From positions 1 through 64,000 of IMG/VR virus record IMGVR_UViG_3300033064_003894: 64,000 nt of DNA; one strand, written 5' to 3'. The number at the start of each line of letters is the position of its first letter. The stretch's first letter is position 1. Below are positions 1-64,000 of this stretch, in pieces. The notes beneath the pieces were generated by a model that saw only the letters and a list, made by a program, of their open reading frames with translations, was not told where the DNA came from and did not search any database. Made by a program: the position numbers and the translations under genes. Origin of the DNA: a virus.

Positions 1-67
1 GGCAATAGAATAATCGGGTTCAGGTAACTCAGTAATAGTTAAATTTATTTTCTTTCCTTTGAACGGG

Positions 68-418
68 TTATGCACTAGGTTTAGAGATTCTCTCTACAAT
101 GATGGCTTGCCATTCTTCATTTGTGTACCGAGCTTCGCTTAGAATTGAAGAACAGCACAAAAGTGCGACAAAAAGGACAAGACCCGATAGCGTTGCAAAT
201 ACACAGCTAACACCTTGTTTAGTATTCATATTAAATTCATCCTTATTGAATTTAATGCATCCGAAAATTGAAATCAAAAGGACAATGGCTGATATTATTA
301 TAATATAAGGCAATACCACTATTGCTGTTTGAGCAGCTGACATGGATTGAATAATCTCTGCTTGTATTAAAGCGTCCCAGTTAATTTGTTCTTGCATTGG
401 TTCTCTCATTGTTTCCAT
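68..418 (-). CDS. hypothetical membrane protein (2 TM helices)
   Basis: ORF with two long hydrophobic stretches; co-directional with upstream genes. Confidence 0.6.
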   Translation of the reverse strand: METMREPMQEQINWDALIQAEIIQSMSAAQTAIVVLPYIIIISAIVLLISIFGCIKFNKDEFNMNTKQGVSCVFATLSGLVLFVALLCCSSILSEARYTNEEWQAIIVERISKPSA

Positions 419-617
419 TTGATTCCGCGTGCATCCTCCGCAGCCGCTCGATCTCGGCGGCTTGGTCGGTGATGTGGGCGCGGATCGTCAGCGACGGATT
501 CTCGTTACGACCGATGCGGAGGCGGGCCCTGTCCCACGCCTCGTTCGCGTCCTCGAAGGCTTGCTCCACCTCGTCCGGCAGCGTCGGGGATTGGGTATCT
601 TTGGTGTGTTCACTCAT
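381..617 (-). CDS. small hypothetical protein (MSEHTKDTQ...QAAEIERLRR), paralogous ends with 614..1003
   Basis: True start taken at ATG 617, which overlaps the TGA of 614..1003 (ATGA); shares N- and C-terminal segments with the upstream gene. Confidence 0.65.
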   Translation of the reverse strand: MSEHTKDTQSPTLPDEVEQAFEDANEAWDRARLRIGRNENPSLTIRAHITDQAAEIERLRRMHAESNGNNERTNARTN

Positions 618-1006
618 TGTGCAGCCTCCGAGCGCAGGCGGGAGAGTCCGGCTGCGGCCATCTTGCGCCATGACCCCTTGTTGCCGAGTCCGCCGCGAGC
701 CTTCTCGTCCATCATCAGCACCCACTCCAGCGCCACGATCTGGCCTCGGCGGTGGGCCCCACCGTCTACTGCAATCCATTCCAGCACCCGACGCAGCCGC
801 ACGATCTCGGCGGCTTGGGAGGTGATTCCCGCGATCAGCGAGTCACGCGCAGGCTTCACGATGTTGCACAGTTCGCAGCGGTAGCACGAGACGTGGCAGC
901 CGCGCTCGCAGCCGACGCGCTCAAGCACAATGCGCAGCGCCTCCGCGAGTTCAGGCGGCCAGGTGGTAGTCGAGGGTTGGGTATCTTTAGTGTGTTCACT
1001 CATTGT
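592..1006. repeat. dispersed direct repeats: ~29 bp ttgggtatcttt(g/a)gtgtgttcactcattgt at ~592-620 and ~978-1006; also cgcagccgc(t/a)cgatctcggcggcttgg at ~438-464 and ~792-818
   Basis: Read directly; single mismatches; they encode the shared gene starts and the QAAEIxRLRR segments. Confidence 0.85.
614..1003 (-). CDS. hypothetical Cys-rich protein (MSEHTKDTQ...QAAEIVRLRR)
   Basis: ATGA overlaps at both ends; CERGC/CYRC/C cluster. Confidence 0.65.
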   Translation of the reverse strand: MSEHTKDTQPSTTTWPPELAEALRIVLERVGCERGCHVSCYRCELCNIVKPARDSLIAGITSQAAEIVRLRRVLEWIAVDGGAHRRGQIVALEWVLMMDEKARGGLGNKGSWRKMAAAGLSRLRSEAAQ

Positions 1007-1221
1007 TTTGCTCCGTCTAGGAATGTCTCAGTTATGAAATCTGGGTTGCCTGTGCCTAGAAACTCATCAATGCCTTTGGCGCATCCTAGCGCGACGATCT
1101 GGTTAAACGACCCGAGTTCATCTTGTCGTAGTGTGAGAATACCGGCTAGGGCACCGTTGATGAATACTGCAACTTGACAGTGTTGTGTGGTTGGGTTTCT
1201 GTAGTTAAGTGTGATTTTCAT
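1000..1221 (-). CDS. small hypothetical protein (MKITLNY...)
   Basis: ATG at 1221 within ORF 1000..1506; stop overlaps next ATG. Confidence 0.55.
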   Translation of the reverse strand: MKITLNYRNPTTQHCQVAVFINGALAGILTLRQDELGSFNQIVALGCAKGIDEFLGTGNPDFITETFLDGAKQ

Positions 1222-1274
1222 CTTGCCACGTTTTAGAGTTGTAGGTGCCGGAGGCCGTAGCCACCGGCGTTGTG

Positions 1275-1595
1275 TTACTTCTGGTGCGTTCCCTCCACGG
1301 CGCGTGCTTCGCGGCCAGCCGTGCGCTTGTTGAGCCAGAGCAGCGCCGTCTCCAGGTGAGTCAGCGCGATGGCGTTCTCGCGGCAACTGAACTTGGAGGC
1401 TTGGTAGTACGCGATGCGCTGGATTGCGGCAGCGATCACACCCTCCACGAACGCGCCGTTTGGTTCGATGCGCTCGGCGTCGCGACCCAGAGGGCCGTTC
1501 TGCCATTCGATGCTAATGCCCGTGCCGGACACCGAGCCGCCAGCGGGGTTCCCGTCAGCGTTGTTGTTGTTTTCGCAGGTGAGGTTTTGGTTCAT
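1275..1595 (-). CDS. tad1: Tad1-family anti-defence sponge (Thoeris gcADPR / cyclic oligonucleotide binding)
   Basis: IEWQNGP...NG...QRIAYYQASKFSCRENAIALTHLETALLWLNKRTAGREARAVEGTHQK matches the Tad1 signature I.FQ.G...HG...RL..FQ...F..RENA.ALTH.EEAL.W.N.R...R..R.V.GT..K. Confidence 0.85.
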   Translation of the reverse strand: MNQNLTCENNNNADGNPAGGSVSGTGISIEWQNGPLGRDAERIEPNGAFVEGVIAAAIQRIAYYQASKFSCRENAIALTHLETALLWLNKRTAGREARAVEGTHQK

Positions 1596-1945
1596 TTAGT
1601 AACTCCGATGGCCGCGCACACGGCGGCGAGGTGGGTTGCGGTGGGGGCGAGCATGGTTTCCACAACAGACATTTCGAAGCAAGGGCTACTCGCGTCGAGC
1701 CTGTTGATGAACTCAACTCCGTAGCGCCGACGCTGCTCCAGCGTCATCGCGGCGACGAGCGCGGCGTAGGTGTCGAGGGAGTCGGGGCGGAGTATGAGCA
1801 GGACGCCGGAAGTCCATTTCCCGAACCACGCGATGTGATTCTCAGACTCGTAGTCATTCACTTGCCAGCAGCGATCATGTAGCAGCACACGGCAGCAGTC
1901 GGCGAGGAGTTCGGCGGGAGTCTTGGTGGTGGATTCGTTACTCAT
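1592..1945 (-). CDS. hypothetical protein (MSNESTTKT...)
   Basis: ATG 1945 overlaps end of 1938..2162; stop overlaps tad1 start. Confidence 0.6.
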   Translation of the reverse strand: MSNESTTKTPAELLADCCRVLLHDRCWQVNDYESENHIAWFGKWTSGVLLILRPDSLDTYAALVAAMTLEQRRRYGVEFINRLDASSPCFEMSVVETMLAPTATHLAAVCAAIGVTK

Positions 1946-2162
1946 TTCGGTGCTCCGGGGCAGGTGCAACAAGGCAGACATGGACAGTACGACTATCGTG
2001 GGGTTCCCATAGACGCCATCCAGCCCTAGTCTTTGTCCACTCCAGCCCAGGTTTGCCGCAGTATCGACAGGACTTGGGCTCCCACTCGTAGAGCGGGACA
2101 TCCTCCCCGTCAATATTACTATCAAAGCCCTGCCCACTAAGCCAGTCGGCCATTTCTCCCAT
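1938..2162 (-). CDS. small Zn-binding phage protein (MGEMADW...CRYC...HVC)
   Basis: CxxC plus HxC ligands; TGATG coupling to upstream gene. Confidence 0.65.
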   Translation of the reverse strand: MGEMADWLSGQGFDSNIDGEDVPLYEWEPKSCRYCGKPGLEWTKTRAGWRLWEPHDSRTVHVCLVAPAPEHRNE

Positions 2163-2587
2163 CAGACCACCTCCCCGGCCAGCGGCTCGTCGAGGGCGGC
2201 GCGGAGTTCGGCGGCGCAGGAGTTCAGGCCGTTACAGAATCCTTGCTCCCCTTGTGTAGCAGCGGGGAAACTTGCCGACGCCTTCCACCTCCCAACCAGC
2301 GCCCTTATCGTGTTGAGTTTATGCGCCGCCTCTTCTCGCACTTCTGCCATCTGCCGCTCCCACGCGAGCGCGGCGGCGCTGATCTGGCGGCAGACTTCCT
2401 TGGGTTCGCCGGACAGATGCACCTCGCGGATGGTGGTGTTTGCCGACGAGCCGTAAACAATAGAGCGCCCGCAGTGGCCTACTACGGACAGGCCAAGGAT
2501 GGGGTGTAGATAACTGGACACCGCGCCGTGGACGGTGAGGACCCACTCGGGGCCGGGGTGGTCGGGTTGGTGTTCGGTATCGTTCAT
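2162..2587 (-). CDS. hypothetical protein (MNDTEHQP...)
   Basis: ATG 2587 overlaps TGA of 2584..2817. Confidence 0.6.
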   Translation of the reverse strand: MNDTEHQPDHPGPEWVLTVHGAVSSYLHPILGLSVVGHCGRSIVYGSSANTTIREVHLSGEPKEVCRQISAAALAWERQMAEVREEAAHKLNTIRALVGRWKASASFPAATQGEQGFCNGLNSCAAELRAALDEPLAGEVV

Positions 2588-2817
2588 GCGGGCAGTTGGG
2601 GATTCGGATGATTCTGGGCTTCTGTCGGATGATTGTCGGATGGTTGTTGCTGGGTGCTCGGGCAGGGATTCGGGTGGAGGCATACGCGCTTGCCGTCTAC
2701 CATCGTGTAGGGGCCGGGGCAGCAGCGGGACCGCTGGTAGGCGTGCCACGCTGCTGAACCTACAGAAATCTTTCCCTCTCTGACGAGGCGTTCGACGTGG
2801 GTTTCGGTATCGTTCAT
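2584..2817 (-). CDS. hypothetical protein (MNDTETHV...)
   Basis: AGAGGA SD upstream; first gene of GC-rich island. Confidence 0.55.
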   Translation of the reverse strand: MNDTETHVERLVREGKISVGSAAWHAYQRSRCCPGPYTMVDGKRVCLHPNPCPSTQQQPSDNHPTEAQNHPNPQLPA

Positions 2818-2879
2818 TTCGTGTCCTCTGTCATGATTGATTTGTGTTTCTTATTGTTAAGGATTTTATCCATAAAGGT

Positions 2880-3272
2880 TTATCCCATATTTTTATATAG
2901 TTTTGTTGATCCCAGTTGACTGAAATTTAGCTTAAGGCCCCTGCGTGACATTTCAATTAGCAAGTATTTGAATGAACTAACATTTGCTTTCCTTGGATTG
3001 TCTCCACCATGCCCGTAATAGCTATATCCATTGTAATAAATAAACGTCACAATGGTATATAATAAATCAATATTATTAATTTTTTCTATCTCGCGAATAA
3101 TACCTAGCCCCATACTCCAGACAGGCTTAAGGCCATTAATAGAAATTTCCTCATCAATACTTATATTTCTTATTTGGTGCTCTGCCGCTGATATGACTAA
3201 CATTCTATAAAATGCTGTTTCGTATTGTATATTATCCAATGTAGAATAATTAGCCACGGCTCTTTTATTCAT
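2880..3272 (-). CDS. hypothetical protein
   Basis: ATG 3272 overlaps end of upstream gene. Confidence 0.55.
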   Translation of the reverse strand: MNKRAVANYSTLDNIQYETAFYRMLVISAAEHQIRNISIDEEISINGLKPVWSMGLGIIREIEKINNIDLLYTIVTFIYYNGYSYYGHGGDNPRKANVSSFKYLLIEMSRRGLKLNFSQLGSTKLYKNMG

Positions 3273-9593: not shown

Positions 9594-9717
9594 GTAGTTT
9601 TCCTTTAGATGCTGCAAGATGCTGCATCTTATTAGTTTATGCCATTAAATATGAGGAGATTAAGTAGATTAATCGCCGCATGTGACACAATTTCTTGTCC
9701 GTGTATAATAGTTAATT

Positions 9718-29400: not shown

Positions 29401-29478
29401 TGGCCTGGCTGGGAGGACTCGAACCTCCGACCGTCGGATTAGAAATCCGATGCTCATTTCCAACTGAGCTACAGCCAG
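29401..29478 (-). tRNA. tRNA-Arg (anticodon UCU), CCA encoded
   Basis: CTGGCTG/CAGCCAG acceptor, GCTC/GAGC D-stem, TCGGA-TTTCTAA-TCCGA anticodon arm, GGAGG-TTCGAGT-CCTCC T-arm, G-CCA. Confidence 0.95.
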
Positions 29479-60293: not shown

Positions 60294-60511
60294 TAACACC
60301 AATAATAATAGACAAAAAAGATATCCTACCTCAAAAGTCTAAGGAGTATCTTTATGACCACTCTATTAGCACTCTAGGAGGGATTGAGCGTAACAAACCT
60401 GTAAAGTTTTGGTTAAGTCAGGCCCTTAAAATATTAAAGATAAGGGCAAAGCCTGCAAAGAGAATATTGTCTAATATTGGGGAAGCGTATGAAGAAGAGA
60501 ATAAAAAATAA
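60290..60511 (+). CDS. small hypothetical protein
   Basis: ATGA and TAATG couplings. Confidence 0.6.
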   Translation: MITPIIIDKKDILPQKSKEYLYDHSISTLGGIERNKPVKFWLSQALKILKIRAKPAKRILSNIGEAYEEENKK

Positions 60512-62295
60512 TGTCAATAAATTCTAATGACCTAGTGTTTGGCAAGTCAAGAGGGGGATATTATCAGTCTCCTTATTATGATATAGCAAGAACGTATCTT
60601 CCAAAGAACATGGAAGACCTAATTCGTTGGTGCAGATATTATTTTGAGAACAACCCAATTATTCACCAGGCCATTAGGCGTATGTCTTCATATCCAGTAA
60701 CTGACATTATGTTGTCAGATGAAATATCAAAAACTGCAAAAGGCAGAGCAGAAGACCTAGTCTCTCAGCTAAAGCTTAGAGACCATTCAATAGATATAGC
60801 AATACAATATTTTACATTTGGCAATGCATTTTCTTCTGTTTCTCACCCATTTCTAAGATACTACAAGTGCTTAAAGTGCACAAAAGAAAACTCACAGGCG
60901 ATGATTTTGCAGACGAGGGGATACAAGAAGTCTATATTTAAAATAAGAACAGTCAGCGGTAAACAGATTATAACACTAGACAGGTGTCATTTCTGCAGAG
61001 AGACTAATGTACCAGTAGATATAATAGATAAACCAGTTAGCGATATTAGTAAGATTAAGATTATCTTGTGGGATCCATCTTATATTCGTATTGACTACAA
61101 TGAGGTATCTGGGGAGAGAAATTACAGATACATACTCCCAGAATCTTCACGTAAATCTATACTTGATGGATTGACGTTTCCTATAACTACTTCACCTAAA
61201 ATATTCATTGATGCGGCACTTCAAGATAAAGACATTATAATAGAGAAGTCGTCATTCTTCCATTTCGCCAGAAACACTGTTTGTTCATCTAACGGATGGG
61301 GAATACCAATAATTCAGCCAGTATTAAGAGAACTGTTCTATATGCAGGTTCTTAAGAAAGCTAGCGAGGCTATTGCTATGCAGCACGTTACGCCTTTGAC
61401 AATATTGTTCCCTGGAGACTCTGGCGGTTCTAATGTATACCAAACACTTGACTTGGGAAACTGGTCAAAGAATGTTGAGGATCAAATTAAGAAGTGGAGG
61501 AGAGATCCTAACCACATGCCAATAATGCCATCACCAGTAGGAGTTGAGTATGTTGGTGGACAGTATAGAACACTTGATCCTCACCCACTAATTGAGCAAT
61601 CAGCTAGTGACATATCTGTAGGCATGGGTGTACCTAAAGAGTTTCTTTATGGAGGGACGTCATTCTCTGGAGCGTCAATTGCTTTGAGAATGCTGGAGAA
61701 TGATTTCATTAACTTAAGGACCTCTCTACTTGAGTACATGAATGAATTCTTAATACCTAGAATTTCAAAGATAGCAAACGTTTCCACTTTCACTCTTAAG
61801 TTTGGAAACATGAGGACTGCTGACGATATTCAAATAAAAGAAACTCTGCTTAGGCTTGCACAGCATGGGTTGATATCAAAAACTACAGTTCTTGCAGAAC
61901 TTGGATTTGATTACGCTAAAGAAACCGATAACATGCTATCAGAGCAGAAAGACCTAGCAAATCTTCAATCTACAATTACATCTGACGAGGGCGGAATTCC
62001 TACAACGCTTTCTAATATTAATGTACCGTTTGGTGACGGATCAATGATGATAGGACAAGTTGGAGAAGAGGCTATATCTGTTATATCTAAGATTATATCT
62101 ACAGCTGACCCTCTAATAGGAACTCAGATACTAGAATATATGCAGTCAATATCTCCAAACGTTCACGGCGCAGTTTCATCCTTTATAGCAAACAATTCAA
62201 GATCTTCTGTCCCTAAAGAAGATAAAGAAGGAGGAACAGACATGAGGCCAACACCAAGTCAGAAACCACCTAGACGTACTAAGTCAACAATATAA
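60511..62295 (+). CDS. phage portal protein with zinc-ribbon insertion
   Basis: YY..NPII..AI, YFTFGNAF, WDP..I, FFHF, GWGIP.I, GMGVP.EFL.GG.SFSGA; CLKC...CHFC insert. Confidence 0.75.
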   Translation: MSINSNDLVFGKSRGGYYQSPYYDIARTYLPKNMEDLIRWCRYYFENNPIIHQAIRRMSSYPVTDIMLSDEISKTAKGRAEDLVSQLKLRDHSIDIAIQYFTFGNAFSSVSHPFLRYYKCLKCTKENSQAMILQTRGYKKSIFKIRTVSGKQIITLDRCHFCRETNVPVDIIDKPVSDISKIKIILWDPSYIRIDYNEVSGERNYRYILPESSRKSILDGLTFPITTSPKIFIDAALQDKDIIIEKSSFFHFARNTVCSSNGWGIPIIQPVLRELFYMQVLKKASEAIAMQHVTPLTILFPGDSGGSNVYQTLDLGNWSKNVEDQIKKWRRDPNHMPIMPSPVGVEYVGGQYRTLDPHPLIEQSASDISVGMGVPKEFLYGGTSFSGASIALRMLENDFINLRTSLLEYMNEFLIPRISKIANVSTFTLKFGNMRTADDIQIKETLLRLAQHGLISKTTVLAELGFDYAKETDNMLSEQKDLANLQSTITSDEGGIPTTLSNINVPFGDGSMMIGQVGEEAISVISKIISTADPLIGTQILEYMQSISPNVHGAVSSFIANNSRSSVPKEDKEGGTDMRPTPSQKPPRRTKSTI

Positions 62296-62663
62296 TGTCA
62301 AACATATTCTTCGCTGGAGAAACAGTACCTAGAACACTTGAAACTAAAAATCACGCTGAGTCTCTTGATAAATCAATAAACCCTGACGATATAATAGCAA
62401 AGGCTGCTGAGGATAATAAGGGTAAAAGAGCTATAGCCTCTGAAGAAGTTAAGGCTCCTGAAGAAATGAGACCTTCATATTTGAAGTATCACTTTTTTGA
62501 GCTACCTAAAGACTCCGTTGAATACGAAACCGTTTGTAAGAAGATCTCTGAAAAAAAATATTCATTTGCTAAGGAAATAGTCAGGGATGTTAACGATGAC
62601 ATTGGTTCAATCGCTATTCATTTGTTCCTTACAGAGACTAGGATTGCGAGTAGTATTCATTAA
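62295..62663 (+). CDS. hypothetical protein downstream of portal
   Basis: TAATG coupling. Confidence 0.65.
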   Translation: MSNIFFAGETVPRTLETKNHAESLDKSINPDDIIAKAAEDNKGKRAIASEEVKAPEEMRPSYLKYHFFELPKDSVEYETVCKKISEKKYSFAKEIVRDVNDDIGSIAIHLFLTETRIASSIH

Positions 62664-62784
62664 TAGTTTCTTCTCTAATCTCTTCTACTAATTTATCTCG
62701 TTCGCTTATTTCTTCTTCAATTTCTTGGCCAGACATGTCATTAGCTACTTCTATAAAGCAAAAGTGCCCATCTTTTTCGTCCAT
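62638..62784 (-). CDS. 48-aa acidic protein (MDEKDGHFCF...)
   Basis: Manually translated; GGTATAAA 5 nt before ATG. Confidence 0.55.
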   Translation of the reverse strand: MDEKDGHFCFIEVANDMSGQEIEEEISERDKLVEEIREETINEYYSQS

Positions 62785-62816
62785 AACTGTTTATACCATT
62801 TTTTTAAAAAAAGTAT

Positions 62817-62844
62817 TTGACAAACAGTTTGTAGTCATTAGAAT
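62817..62844 (+). promoter_or_regulatory. sigma70-type promoter
   Basis: TTGACA (62817-62822), 16 nt spacer, TAGAAT (62839-62844); A/T tract upstream. Confidence 0.7.
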
Positions 62845-62846
62845 TT

Positions 62847-63010
62847 CCGCGTCCAACTAAGGTTGGAGGGGAGACCCGAGACGATTCGGGGCAAGTTAAT
62901 ACTTGGATGGACGGGGGGAAACACCTCAGCTATACAGGCATACGTTTAACAATTAGAGGTTCCCGAAACCTCCAAAACAACGGCGTTACTGAACGAACAA
63001 TCTGGACATT
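62847..63010 (+). ncRNA. candidate structured ncRNA, unassigned family
   Basis: Follows promoter; locally GC-rich; hairpins TCCAAC/GTTGGA, GGG-GAGA-CCC or CCCGA/TCGGG, CAAGT/ACTTG, GAGGTT/AACCTC; no ORF. Confidence 0.45.
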
Positions 63011-63488
63011 TTAAATAGAAGATCAACAAATCAAGTGGTGGAAATTCTAAATTCAGGAGCATGCCCTGAACACGTTGTTCTATTCATTCAACATATTTTA
63101 CTATATAATTGCCATATCATCACAGATACAGAGATTTCCTTATTCTGCAGAGAGCAGCGCAACATATGCACCAGCATCGCCTCAGACATGCCTGTATTCA
63201 CTTGTGCGGCTACATAATATGAAAAGTGGCATCTCACTCACCTTTTGTATGAAAATCGATTACAGGGCATTACAGACGCGTTTAAGCGAATGTGCCATTT
63301 TTCGGCCCGTAAATTATATGCTAGTCTTTCTATCGAAGGTCTCTCGCACGCGTAAGAGCTGCACGCGCTCGCGTAAGAGTTAACTGTTAATTGTATGCTT
63401 GGTAGCTAGGTAGGAAACCCTCCTCTATCCTCCCCCCTATAGTCCCCCCTCCTTCCTCCTCCCTTTAATCCGCATGCACCATATTTTT

Positions 63489-63522
63489 AAAAATAAAAAT
63501 GGAACACCCGTGTGGATGTTCC
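63489..63522 (-). terminator. terminator for 63543..63812
   Basis: GGAACA...TGTTCC stem followed by ATTTTTATTTT on minus strand. Confidence 0.6.
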
Positions 63523-63542
63523 AAGCCCGATAGGCATTTGGC

Positions 63543-63812
63543 TTAGCCTTCGTCTTCGTCGTCCGGGCTCTTCGGGCTACTCGTCCGAGCTTTCTTGTCG
63601 GCAGCGCTCTTGCGGTTGAACAGGCGCGAGCCTCTCACTCCGTCGATTGCGTAGCCGCCTCCGGCGACGATCGCAGTTCCGATGGCAACGGCGACACCAA
63701 CGGCGACGCCGAGTCTCAATCCGGTGAGCAGGGTGTTTCCAATCCCGCCAGTCGCCAATCCGGATTCGGAAACGACAGCCGAGGGTTCGGTGGGAAGTTC
63801 GATTTCGTTCAC
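63543..63812 (-). CDS. small single-TM protein, GC-rich
   Basis: AAGGAG SD, GTG start, GVAVGVAVAIGTAIVAGGG; promoter motif at 63879-63886. Confidence 0.7.
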   Translation of the reverse strand: MNEIELPTEPSAVVSESGLATGGIGNTLLTGLRLGVAVGVAVAIGTAIVAGGGYAIDGVRGSRLFNRKSAADKKARTSSPKSPDDEDEG

Positions 63813-64000
63813 AGGTCTTTCTCCTTAATTTCGAGTTCTCAGTAGTGCGAAACTTTGTTATGGTTTCACTTACAAGATTTTATACCACTCAATGTTAATA
63901 AATTGACTAGTTTTAGGCCTTGAAAAGGACTGGAATGATGATAAGATATTGTTATGAAAAGAGTAGTAACTAACGGCGTCAGAAGGGTCGTTGAGAGCTC

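Follow-up and report, generated by a model that had tools for sequence, protein, structure and literature searches.

The DNA considered here is the first 64 kb of the IMG/VR virus record IMGVR_UViG_3300033064_003894 (64,000 nucleotides (nt), hereafter the window). The whole record, hereafter the genome, has 139,837 bp and ~40% GC, comes from a freshwater metagenome and is ~79% complete; its source is best read as a freshwater myovirus-like phage with a genome of 140 kb or more. The portal gene lies at 60511-62295, and its product is 27-29% identical to the portal proteins of the closest isolated relatives, the Vibrio phages D69, D181 and D148 and the Salmonella phage Arash, and 43-51% identical to those of the closest uncultured relatives. 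The order of features 3' of the portal gene is common to the window and all close relatives: a small gene on the + strand is followed by a tiny open reading frame (ORF) on the - strand, by a non-coding gap, and by the terminator of a convergent, GC-rich gene for a membrane peptide. The gap (62785-63500) measures 715 nt here, as against 240-400 nt in the relatives, and its left part, 264 nt long, had been described in a first-pass annotation as a candidate new structured non-coding RNA (ncRNA). We tentatively propose instead that the gap holds a sigma70-type promoter, a leader hairpin that has been interrupted, and an insertion resembling MITEs (miniature inverted-repeat transposable elements), all within lineage-specific non-coding DNA, and that it may serve in Rho-dependent termination. 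The features are collected in the table.

Table. Features of the non-coding gap and its borders, in window coordinates (IR-L and IR-R, left and right inverted repeat)
Feature	Position	Strand	Remarks
Tiny acidic ORF, 48 amino acids (aa)	62638-62784	-	divergent from the flagged promoter; start 5 nt past a TGGTATAAA extended -10
sigma70-type promoter, TTGACA-16-TAGAAT	62817-62844	+	11/12 match, -35 perfect
G-rich leader	62849-62922	+	27 G and 8 C in 62861-62920; own fold z -2.5 to -3.6
TCCAAC/GTTGGA stem	62852-62867		sequence reading
CCCGA/TCGGG stem	62875-62890		sequence reading
CAAGT/ACTTG stem	62892-62905		sequence reading
Direct repeat GGAAAC, left copy	62917-62922	.	abuts IR-L; candidate target-site duplication
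IR-L	62923-62955	.	pairs with IR-R; end of the 489-bp segment
Segment interior	62956-63380	.	non-coding; z -0.7 to +0.6; holds the GAGGTT and TTCAGG hairpins
GAGGTT/AACCTC stem	62956-62972		inside the 489-bp segment
TTCAGG/CCTGAA stem	63052-63070		inside the 489-bp segment
IR-R	63381-63411	.	pairs with IR-L
Direct repeat GGAAAC, right copy	63413-63418	.	one base (A63412) past IR-R
C-rich, G-poor tract	63415-63474	+	60 nt with 32 C and 2 G; the interrupted hairpin's 3' arm
Intrinsic terminator of the membrane-peptide gene	63500-63523	-	marks the right end of the gap; same arrangement in relatives

The promoter that opens the flagged region is there as it had been described, with an A/T tract upstream of it (62799-62812) and a palindrome, CAAACAGTTTG, in its spacer; neither the spacer palindrome CAAACNGTTTG nor the 11-nt inverted-repeat arm that overlaps the promoter recurs in the window. 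It is not the only sigma70-type promoter, though no other had been noticed at first, since the genome holds ten sites that match at 11/12 or better, against ~5 in shuffles. Sites of the form nnGACA-16-TAnAAT make up a family in this genome; the flagged promoter belongs to it, some members precede genes, and promoter-like sites of the nnGACA-16-TATAAT type at 9682 and 15364 stand 8-10 nt before ATG starts. Another family, with the extended -10 TGGTATAAA, provides promoter-like motifs for further genes, among them the divergent tiny ORF and the membrane-peptide gene. The TTTATACC (TGGTATAAA) motif is found a few bases before the tiny - strand ORF both here and in three relatives, L002, L005 and L007, and the tiny ORF is probably leaderless because its start comes so soon after this motif. 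Copies of the TGGTATAAA extended -10 are seen in the window at 62796(-), 63885(-), 28837(+), 28814(-), 15344(-) and 31213(-), and further ones at genome positions 84755(-) and 125795(-); several of them precede a start codon by 5-10 nt, in the leaderless manner, or a small gene led by a Shine-Dalgarno (SD) sequence by ~60 nt. Judged from these motifs, the phage plausibly uses the host sigma70-type RNA polymerase (RNAP) and makes many leaderless mRNAs. The flagged promoter, whose family is found before leaderless genes, is credible, a rightward promoter reading into non-coding DNA being a plausible interpretation of it. A rightward TTCACA-17-TAGAAT occurs in the gap of L002, and the gaps of L005 and L007 have no rightward promoter match.

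The first-pass annotation had noticed no ORF in the stretch, and none is credible. When scored for native codon usage, the ORFs of the gap range from -0.30 to +0.11, where pieces of real genes reach 0.39 +/- 0.13, and they have neither a Pfam match nor a protein homologue, so that a small-protein reading is rejected by all three. The tiny ORF to the left of the promoter scores 0.36, which is native-like, and has an equivalent tiny minus-strand ORF in the relatives. As for known RNAs, the Rfam scan that had been suggested (cmscan of 62000-64000, E <= 10) matched no family; it returned four noise matches, none of them within 62859-63080, the nearest of which (62764-62858, - strand) touches only the first bases of the leader. 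ARAGORN found no tRNA or tmRNA in the flagged region, and the earlier failure to match it to a tRNA, tmRNA or 6S RNA agrees with cmscan, ARAGORN and folding, by which it has no model match or characteristic fold. The terminator scan found no + strand terminator in the gap.

All the stems that had been named are present in the sequence, and the TGGAC motif occurs at 62908 and 63004, the latter copy being inside the 489-bp segment that is described below. Short perfect hairpins are in fact enriched: 62845-63080 contains eight with 5-6 bp (six of them distinct), compared with 1.3 +/- 1.4 in dinucleotide shuffles, of which 0/300 reach eight, and the same count is reached by only 1.7% of genome windows of this size. 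The description of the region as dense in stems holds to this extent, but thermodynamic stability is limited to the first ~70 nt. Taken together, the 231 nt at 62850-63080 fold with a z score of -1.3, and 24 of 200 shuffles are as stable; 62919-63105 (z -0.5 to +0.6) and, on both strands, 63081-63479 fold at chance, and the right boundary of the flagged region, 63080, is arbitrary. Within the leader, by contrast with the 231 nt, 62845-62918 has a + strand fold of -29.3 kcal/mol (z -3.6), the - strand reaching -21.2 kcal/mol, and from the plausible starts 62849 or 62851 the fold has a z of -3.0 or -2.5. This stretch ranks ~50th of 17,471 windows in the genome; on each strand, upwards of 20 loci, the majority of them coding, are as stable. 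The G-rich arm of the leader falls within the genome's top dozen windows for G skew. The leader can adopt two conformers, one long hairpin with the CCCGA/TCGGG hairpin inside it (-29.3 kcal/mol) or three local hairpins (-26.9 kcal/mol), separated by a gap of ~2.4 kcal/mol. The switch-like alternative folds that had been proposed do exist in this energetic sense, but nothing indicates selection for them. Similarly, of the immediate-early structured RNA made by host RNAP, what stands is a plausible promoter and a stable 5' end of ~70 nt, the remaining RNA folding no better than shuffles; the suggested roles as a decoy, a primer or a portal-associated RNA are conjectures.

A stronger signal appears when the gap is folded as a whole. 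On the + strand, 62849-63500 folds at -178.6 kcal/mol, with z -3.2 against dinucleotide shuffles and -2.8 to -4.6 against block or global shuffles (0/60 each), compared with only -1.4 to -1.7 on the - strand; the shuffles disperse the G-rich and C-rich tracts, which inflates these whole-gap values. The significance is due to two nested long-range pairings. The inner one is a helix of 29 pairs (26 Watson-Crick and 3 G-U) formed over 31-33 nt between 62923-62955 and 63381-63411, with a pairing probability (P) of 0.95-0.99, and the outer one joins the G-rich 62859-62919 to the C-rich 63431-63465 (P ~0.6-0.7). At the level of DNA, the inverted repeat has a Smith-Waterman score of 27, against 19.7 +/- 1.8 (maximum 24) in 40 shuffles. 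It bounds a non-coding segment of 489 bp (62923-63411), at both junctions of which stands the hexamer GGAAAC, an event with a roughly estimated chance of ~0.002-0.01, for which a microhomology junction or coincidence are also possible explanations. Inside the segment, two copies of CGC(A/T)CGCGTAAGAG at 63345-63379, 21 nt apart (two helical turns), resemble an operator or iteron and have no other copies. Beyond it, 63415-63474 exceeds every other 60-mer of the 139.8-kb genome in its bias of C>G; a C-rich tract at the corresponding place is strong in L005 (21 C / 2 G), weaker in L007 and short in L002. When 62923-63418 is deleted in silico, a gap of ~220 nt is left, near the 240-400 nt of the relatives, and in the resulting 136-nt empty-site version the G and C arms form one hairpin at -51.1 kcal/mol, the z being -3.7 for the + strand (0/300 shuffles) and -2.1 for the - strand.

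A search of IMG/VR with the single portal protein found no relative, and an alignment query found 80 loci, one of them close. By blastn, nhmmer and tblastx the gap resembles none of 85 related loci; the whole records of three relatives, L002 and L005 not among them, contain no DNA similar to it, and distant-mode blastn gave no match in INPHARED. A covariance model (CM) built on the single sequence of the 74-nt hairpin matches only itself, and a scan of IMG/VR for the hairpin pattern gave 0 matches. In L002, L005 and L007 the syntenic gaps have z scores of +0.5, -1.7 and -0.2 and are thus unstructured, and they cannot be aligned with each other, save for a 96-nt stretch in L005 and L007 that adjoins the terminator. 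The only sequencing runs listed as containing this sequence are four DNA runs, with no RNA run among them; they come from a single freshwater study, hardly differ from each other and have no variant in the gap, so that they offer no micro-variation for testing the pairing. The homologue and covariation check that the first-pass annotation had proposed thus brought relatives together and yielded no alignable homologue, conserved sequence or fold among them. The comparison lends no support to a conserved RNA, and, with a z of only -1.3 for the whole 231 nt and no Rfam match, homologue or shared fold, the notion of a compact structured ncRNA of ~190 nt, and with it of a compact new structured RNA in the flagged stretch, is not supported.

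From this anatomy we infer the following history. The promoter would be used by host RNAP and fire rightward, divergent from the leaderless promoter of the tiny ORF, and would yield a non-coding leader transcript whose first ~70 nt are G-rich and predicted to be stably folded. The G-rich arm may originally have lain opposite the C-rich tract (63419-63470), the two forming one hairpin of ~125 nt just past the promoter. This hairpin would then have been split at its tip by the 489-bp segment, bounded by its inverted repeat and flanked by GGAAAC, and the imperfect terminal inverted repeats (TIRs) of 31-33 nt together with the 6-bp direct repeat suggest that the segment arrived in a MITE-like or microhomology-mediated manner. 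The MITEs of prokaryotes and viruses range from 50 to 800 bp, with TIRs of at least 10-15 bp and target-site duplications (TSDs) of 2-10 bp, and have been reported in only ~0.2% of the viruses surveyed (PMC11602168). In its inverted-repeat length, small size and lack of coding capacity, the segment agrees with the description of MITEs, and it resembles the elements of that survey in being intergenic, with TIRs longer than 15 bp, a short flanking direct repeat and no transposase. In size it is also close to MPME1/2, the ultra-small mobile elements of mycobacteriophages, of ~440 bp, reportedly described by Sampson et al. in 2009 (see also PMC3029335). It differs from both MITEs and MPMEs in being single-copy in everything searched, in having TIRs that are only ~80% matched, and in the offset of its direct repeat by 1 nt; it has no sequence similarity to known elements and no identified partner transposase.

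Several observations weigh against this account. Neither the 489-bp segment nor its ends were found a second time in the phage, in the full records of three relatives or in INPHARED, and pattern scans for the segment ends in IMG/VR, the JGI metagenomes and GTDB gave only chance-level matches of 20-26 nt (the TIR patterns matched 3 times in IMG/VR, 0 and 4 times in JGI and 2 times in GTDB, in no case beyond the 20-26-nt pattern). For this reason, that no other copy was found, the segment is called a MITE-like or microhomology-mediated insertion and is not assigned to any MITE family. On the right, one extra base separates IR-R from the direct repeat, and the inverted repeats are imperfect to the degree already given; the relatives have no alignable empty site, only the gap length after removal agreeing with theirs, and they lack the hairpin of G-arm and C-arm. 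In addition, of the five positions at which a substitution spoils the inverted repeat, three form G-U pairs on the + strand and none does so on the - strand, a strand specificity that hints at selection at the level of RNA over plain decay of TIRs. Among the scan results, positions 9-34 of L095 (JAAUYL010010209.1) match IR-L at 92% over 26 nt, at the end of an unrelated metagenome contig; the interior counterpart runs off the contig, and the match is probably due to chance, given that it was selected by pattern.

The part of the proposal that concerns termination is held with low confidence. Rho loads at rut sites, which are C-rich, G-poor and unstructured in the RNA, and some leaders mask a rut site by pairing. 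The 32 C and 2 G of 63415-63474 give the C-rich, G-poor composition, over 60-80 nt or more, that is expected of a rut site. This distal tract could load Rho and halt rightward transcription before it runs antisense into the membrane-peptide gene, and pairing with the G-rich arm could mask it, both suggestions being drawn from composition and orientation. The likeness to Rho-dependent terminators lies in a C-rich tract at the distal end of a rightward unit, before a convergent gene, with a complementary G-rich arm upstream; unlike them, the locus offers a compositional match only, in a tract that is partly conserved. That Rho's role is argued from composition also counts against the proposal. 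Promoter-proximal stem-loops at the 5' end of transcripts are otherwise known from the ompA leader, which stabilises its mRNA, and from the cis-acting put of phage HK022. The leader is like these in having a stable hairpin that starts within a few nt of the point where a sigma70-driven transcript is predicted to begin, and is unlike them in that it serves no downstream gene, has no similarity to put or nut and no Rfam match, and carries a hairpin that is not conserved.

Other explanations have to be set against the interrupted hairpin with its insertion. It is unlikely, though less so than other alternatives, that the gap has no dedicated function and is a fast-evolving spacer between a divergent promoter and a convergent terminator, its features being due to chance or to a junk insertion. 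About five promoter matches of 11/12 are indeed expected by chance in the genome, many mostly coding loci fold as the leader does, and the sequence is not conserved even among the gaps of the relatives. However, a perfect -35, a hairpin density in the top 1.7%, an extreme C tract, a significant inverted repeat and a direct repeat are all co-located here, and phage genomes rarely retain 700 nt of inert DNA. In another reading, which the strand-specific pairing favours, the promoter drives a lineage-specific ncRNA of ~620 nt (62849-63470), closed by a bipartite helix of its 5' and 3' ends, made up of the pairing of G-arm and C-arm and that of 62923-62955 with 63381-63411, which protects it or acts as a scaffold, GGAAAC being then coincidental. 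The whole-gap fold is significant on the + strand only, the helix combines its high P with three + strand G-U pairs that have no A-C counterparts, the closing helix is retained in the centroid structure, and the promoter has the correct orientation. This reading is nevertheless decidedly unlikely: its 425-nt interior is no better than shuffles, unlike known large structured RNAs, it has no Rfam match and no sequence or structure conserved in the relatives, its z is inflated by shuffles that disperse the G-rich and C-rich tracts, and the direct repeat at both junctions of the helix is left unexplained.

The compact small RNA (sRNA) of the first-pass annotation, taken as an early transcript of host RNAP of ~200-235 nt (~62850-63085) that ends at TTCAGG/CCTGAA and works as a trans-acting decoy or regulator by means of alternative folds, is quite improbable. 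The promoter, the enrichment in short perfect hairpins, the two near-isoenergetic conformers of the 5' domain and a U-containing stretch after the hairpin at 63052-63070 speak for it. Yet its fold is weak over 231 nt and its z is ~0 for 62919-63105, no + strand terminator was found in the gap by scan, it has no homologues or covariation, and its 3' two thirds lie inside the inverted-repeat segment, the partner arm of which is 300 nt past the proposed end. A transcription-activated origin, in which the G-rich transcript forms a persistent R-loop that serves as primer, as in ColE1 or at T4 oriF/oriG, and the upstream A/T tract unwinds, is very improbable. It would account for the G-clusters of the non-template strand directly past the promoter, where 60 nt contain 27 G and 8 C, and for the A/T palindrome at 62799-62812; moreover, the relatives keep a non-coding gap at the same position, and in L002, too, a TAGAAT promoter leads into a stretch rich in G and poor in C. 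This support is compositional throughout, however, and no iterons are seen except the two CGCGTAAGAG copies, which are within the putative insertion; there is no adjoining initiator gene, cumulative GC skew has no turn here, and L005 and L007 are without the promoter and the G-rich arm. More generally, it is improbable that the gap is a functional locus whose sequence evolves too fast to be aligned, be it a ~620-nt ncRNA with a closing helix of ~55 bp or an R-loop replication primer.

A number of narrower candidates were rejected. A perfect 11-nt inverted repeat (62838-62848 / 63040-63050, TTAGAATTTCC / GGAAATTCTAA) is near chance expectation in 1.2 kb; a MITE reading of it fails for lack of a flanking duplication and on this chance frequency. 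The same repeat encloses hairpins, with G residues just past its 5' arm, as in the msr-msd of retrons, but the 5' arm overlaps the -10 box and so lies outside the predicted transcript, there is no Rfam msr match, and the nearest ORF resembling a reverse transcriptase (RT) is 16 kb off, so that the retron reading was also dropped. That ORF (genome 79150-80412, - strand; L090 15150-16412; 420 aa) scores 21.7 bits against RVT_1, below the cut-off of 29.6, and its PADLOC matches are weak and mixed (Cas-associated RT, RT_XIII and retron types). A decoy for CsrA was rejected because the 8 GGA motifs (counted by eye), against ~4 expected from base composition (an estimate), are not significant, and a cluster of restriction palindromes because its 14 six-base palindromes are no enrichment over the 11.2 that the genome has on average.

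On the right side of the gap, the membrane-peptide gene (63543-63812, - strand) encodes 89 aa rich in Gly and Ala, and is a GC-rich, stand-alone gene with its own promoter (~63885), SD sequence and terminator. It has no Pfam match and a weak PHROG match with no assigned function. A GC-rich small gene is found in a comparable place in L002, L005 and L007, and for this reason the gene is regarded as a property of the clade and not as a recent foreign insert. Elsewhere, positions 1-3000 of the record have 53-58% GC, against ~40% in the rest, and may be acquired DNA or an assembly join, and the only tRNA in the window is a tRNA-Arg(TCT) at 29401-29478 (-). A second large non-coding gap (genome 69713-70514, L090 5713-6514), upstream of an RNAP-like ORF of 2464 aa, is by a wide margin the genome's densest in 6-bp palindromes that contain G/C, with 26 per 716 nt where the mean is 7.2, and has an architecture unlike that of the gap studied here. 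Beyond the window, genome 136506-136600 (+) carries TGGACA-16-TATAAT followed by two hairpins, the second with a GC-rich stem of 9-11 bp and then T7-8. It resembles a ~60-nt promoter-to-terminator unit for an sRNA or attenuator and, at z -4.3, ranks with the genome's most stable 74-nt windows.

The region is thus a fairly ordinary one, an orphan promoter and leader with a probable small insertion, and it leaves current understanding unchanged. The apparent density of stems would stem from an interrupted hairpin of G-rich and C-rich arms and from the terminal repeats of an insertion, and not from a new RNA family. If the proposal is correct, its value is mainly for annotation, marking a probable early promoter and leader hairpin, and it would add a rare case of MITE-like insertion in a freshwater phage of lytic type. 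A non-coding gap that is found throughout the clade, with a C-rich tract before a convergent gene, could in turn aid the study of how convergent transcription units are insulated from each other.

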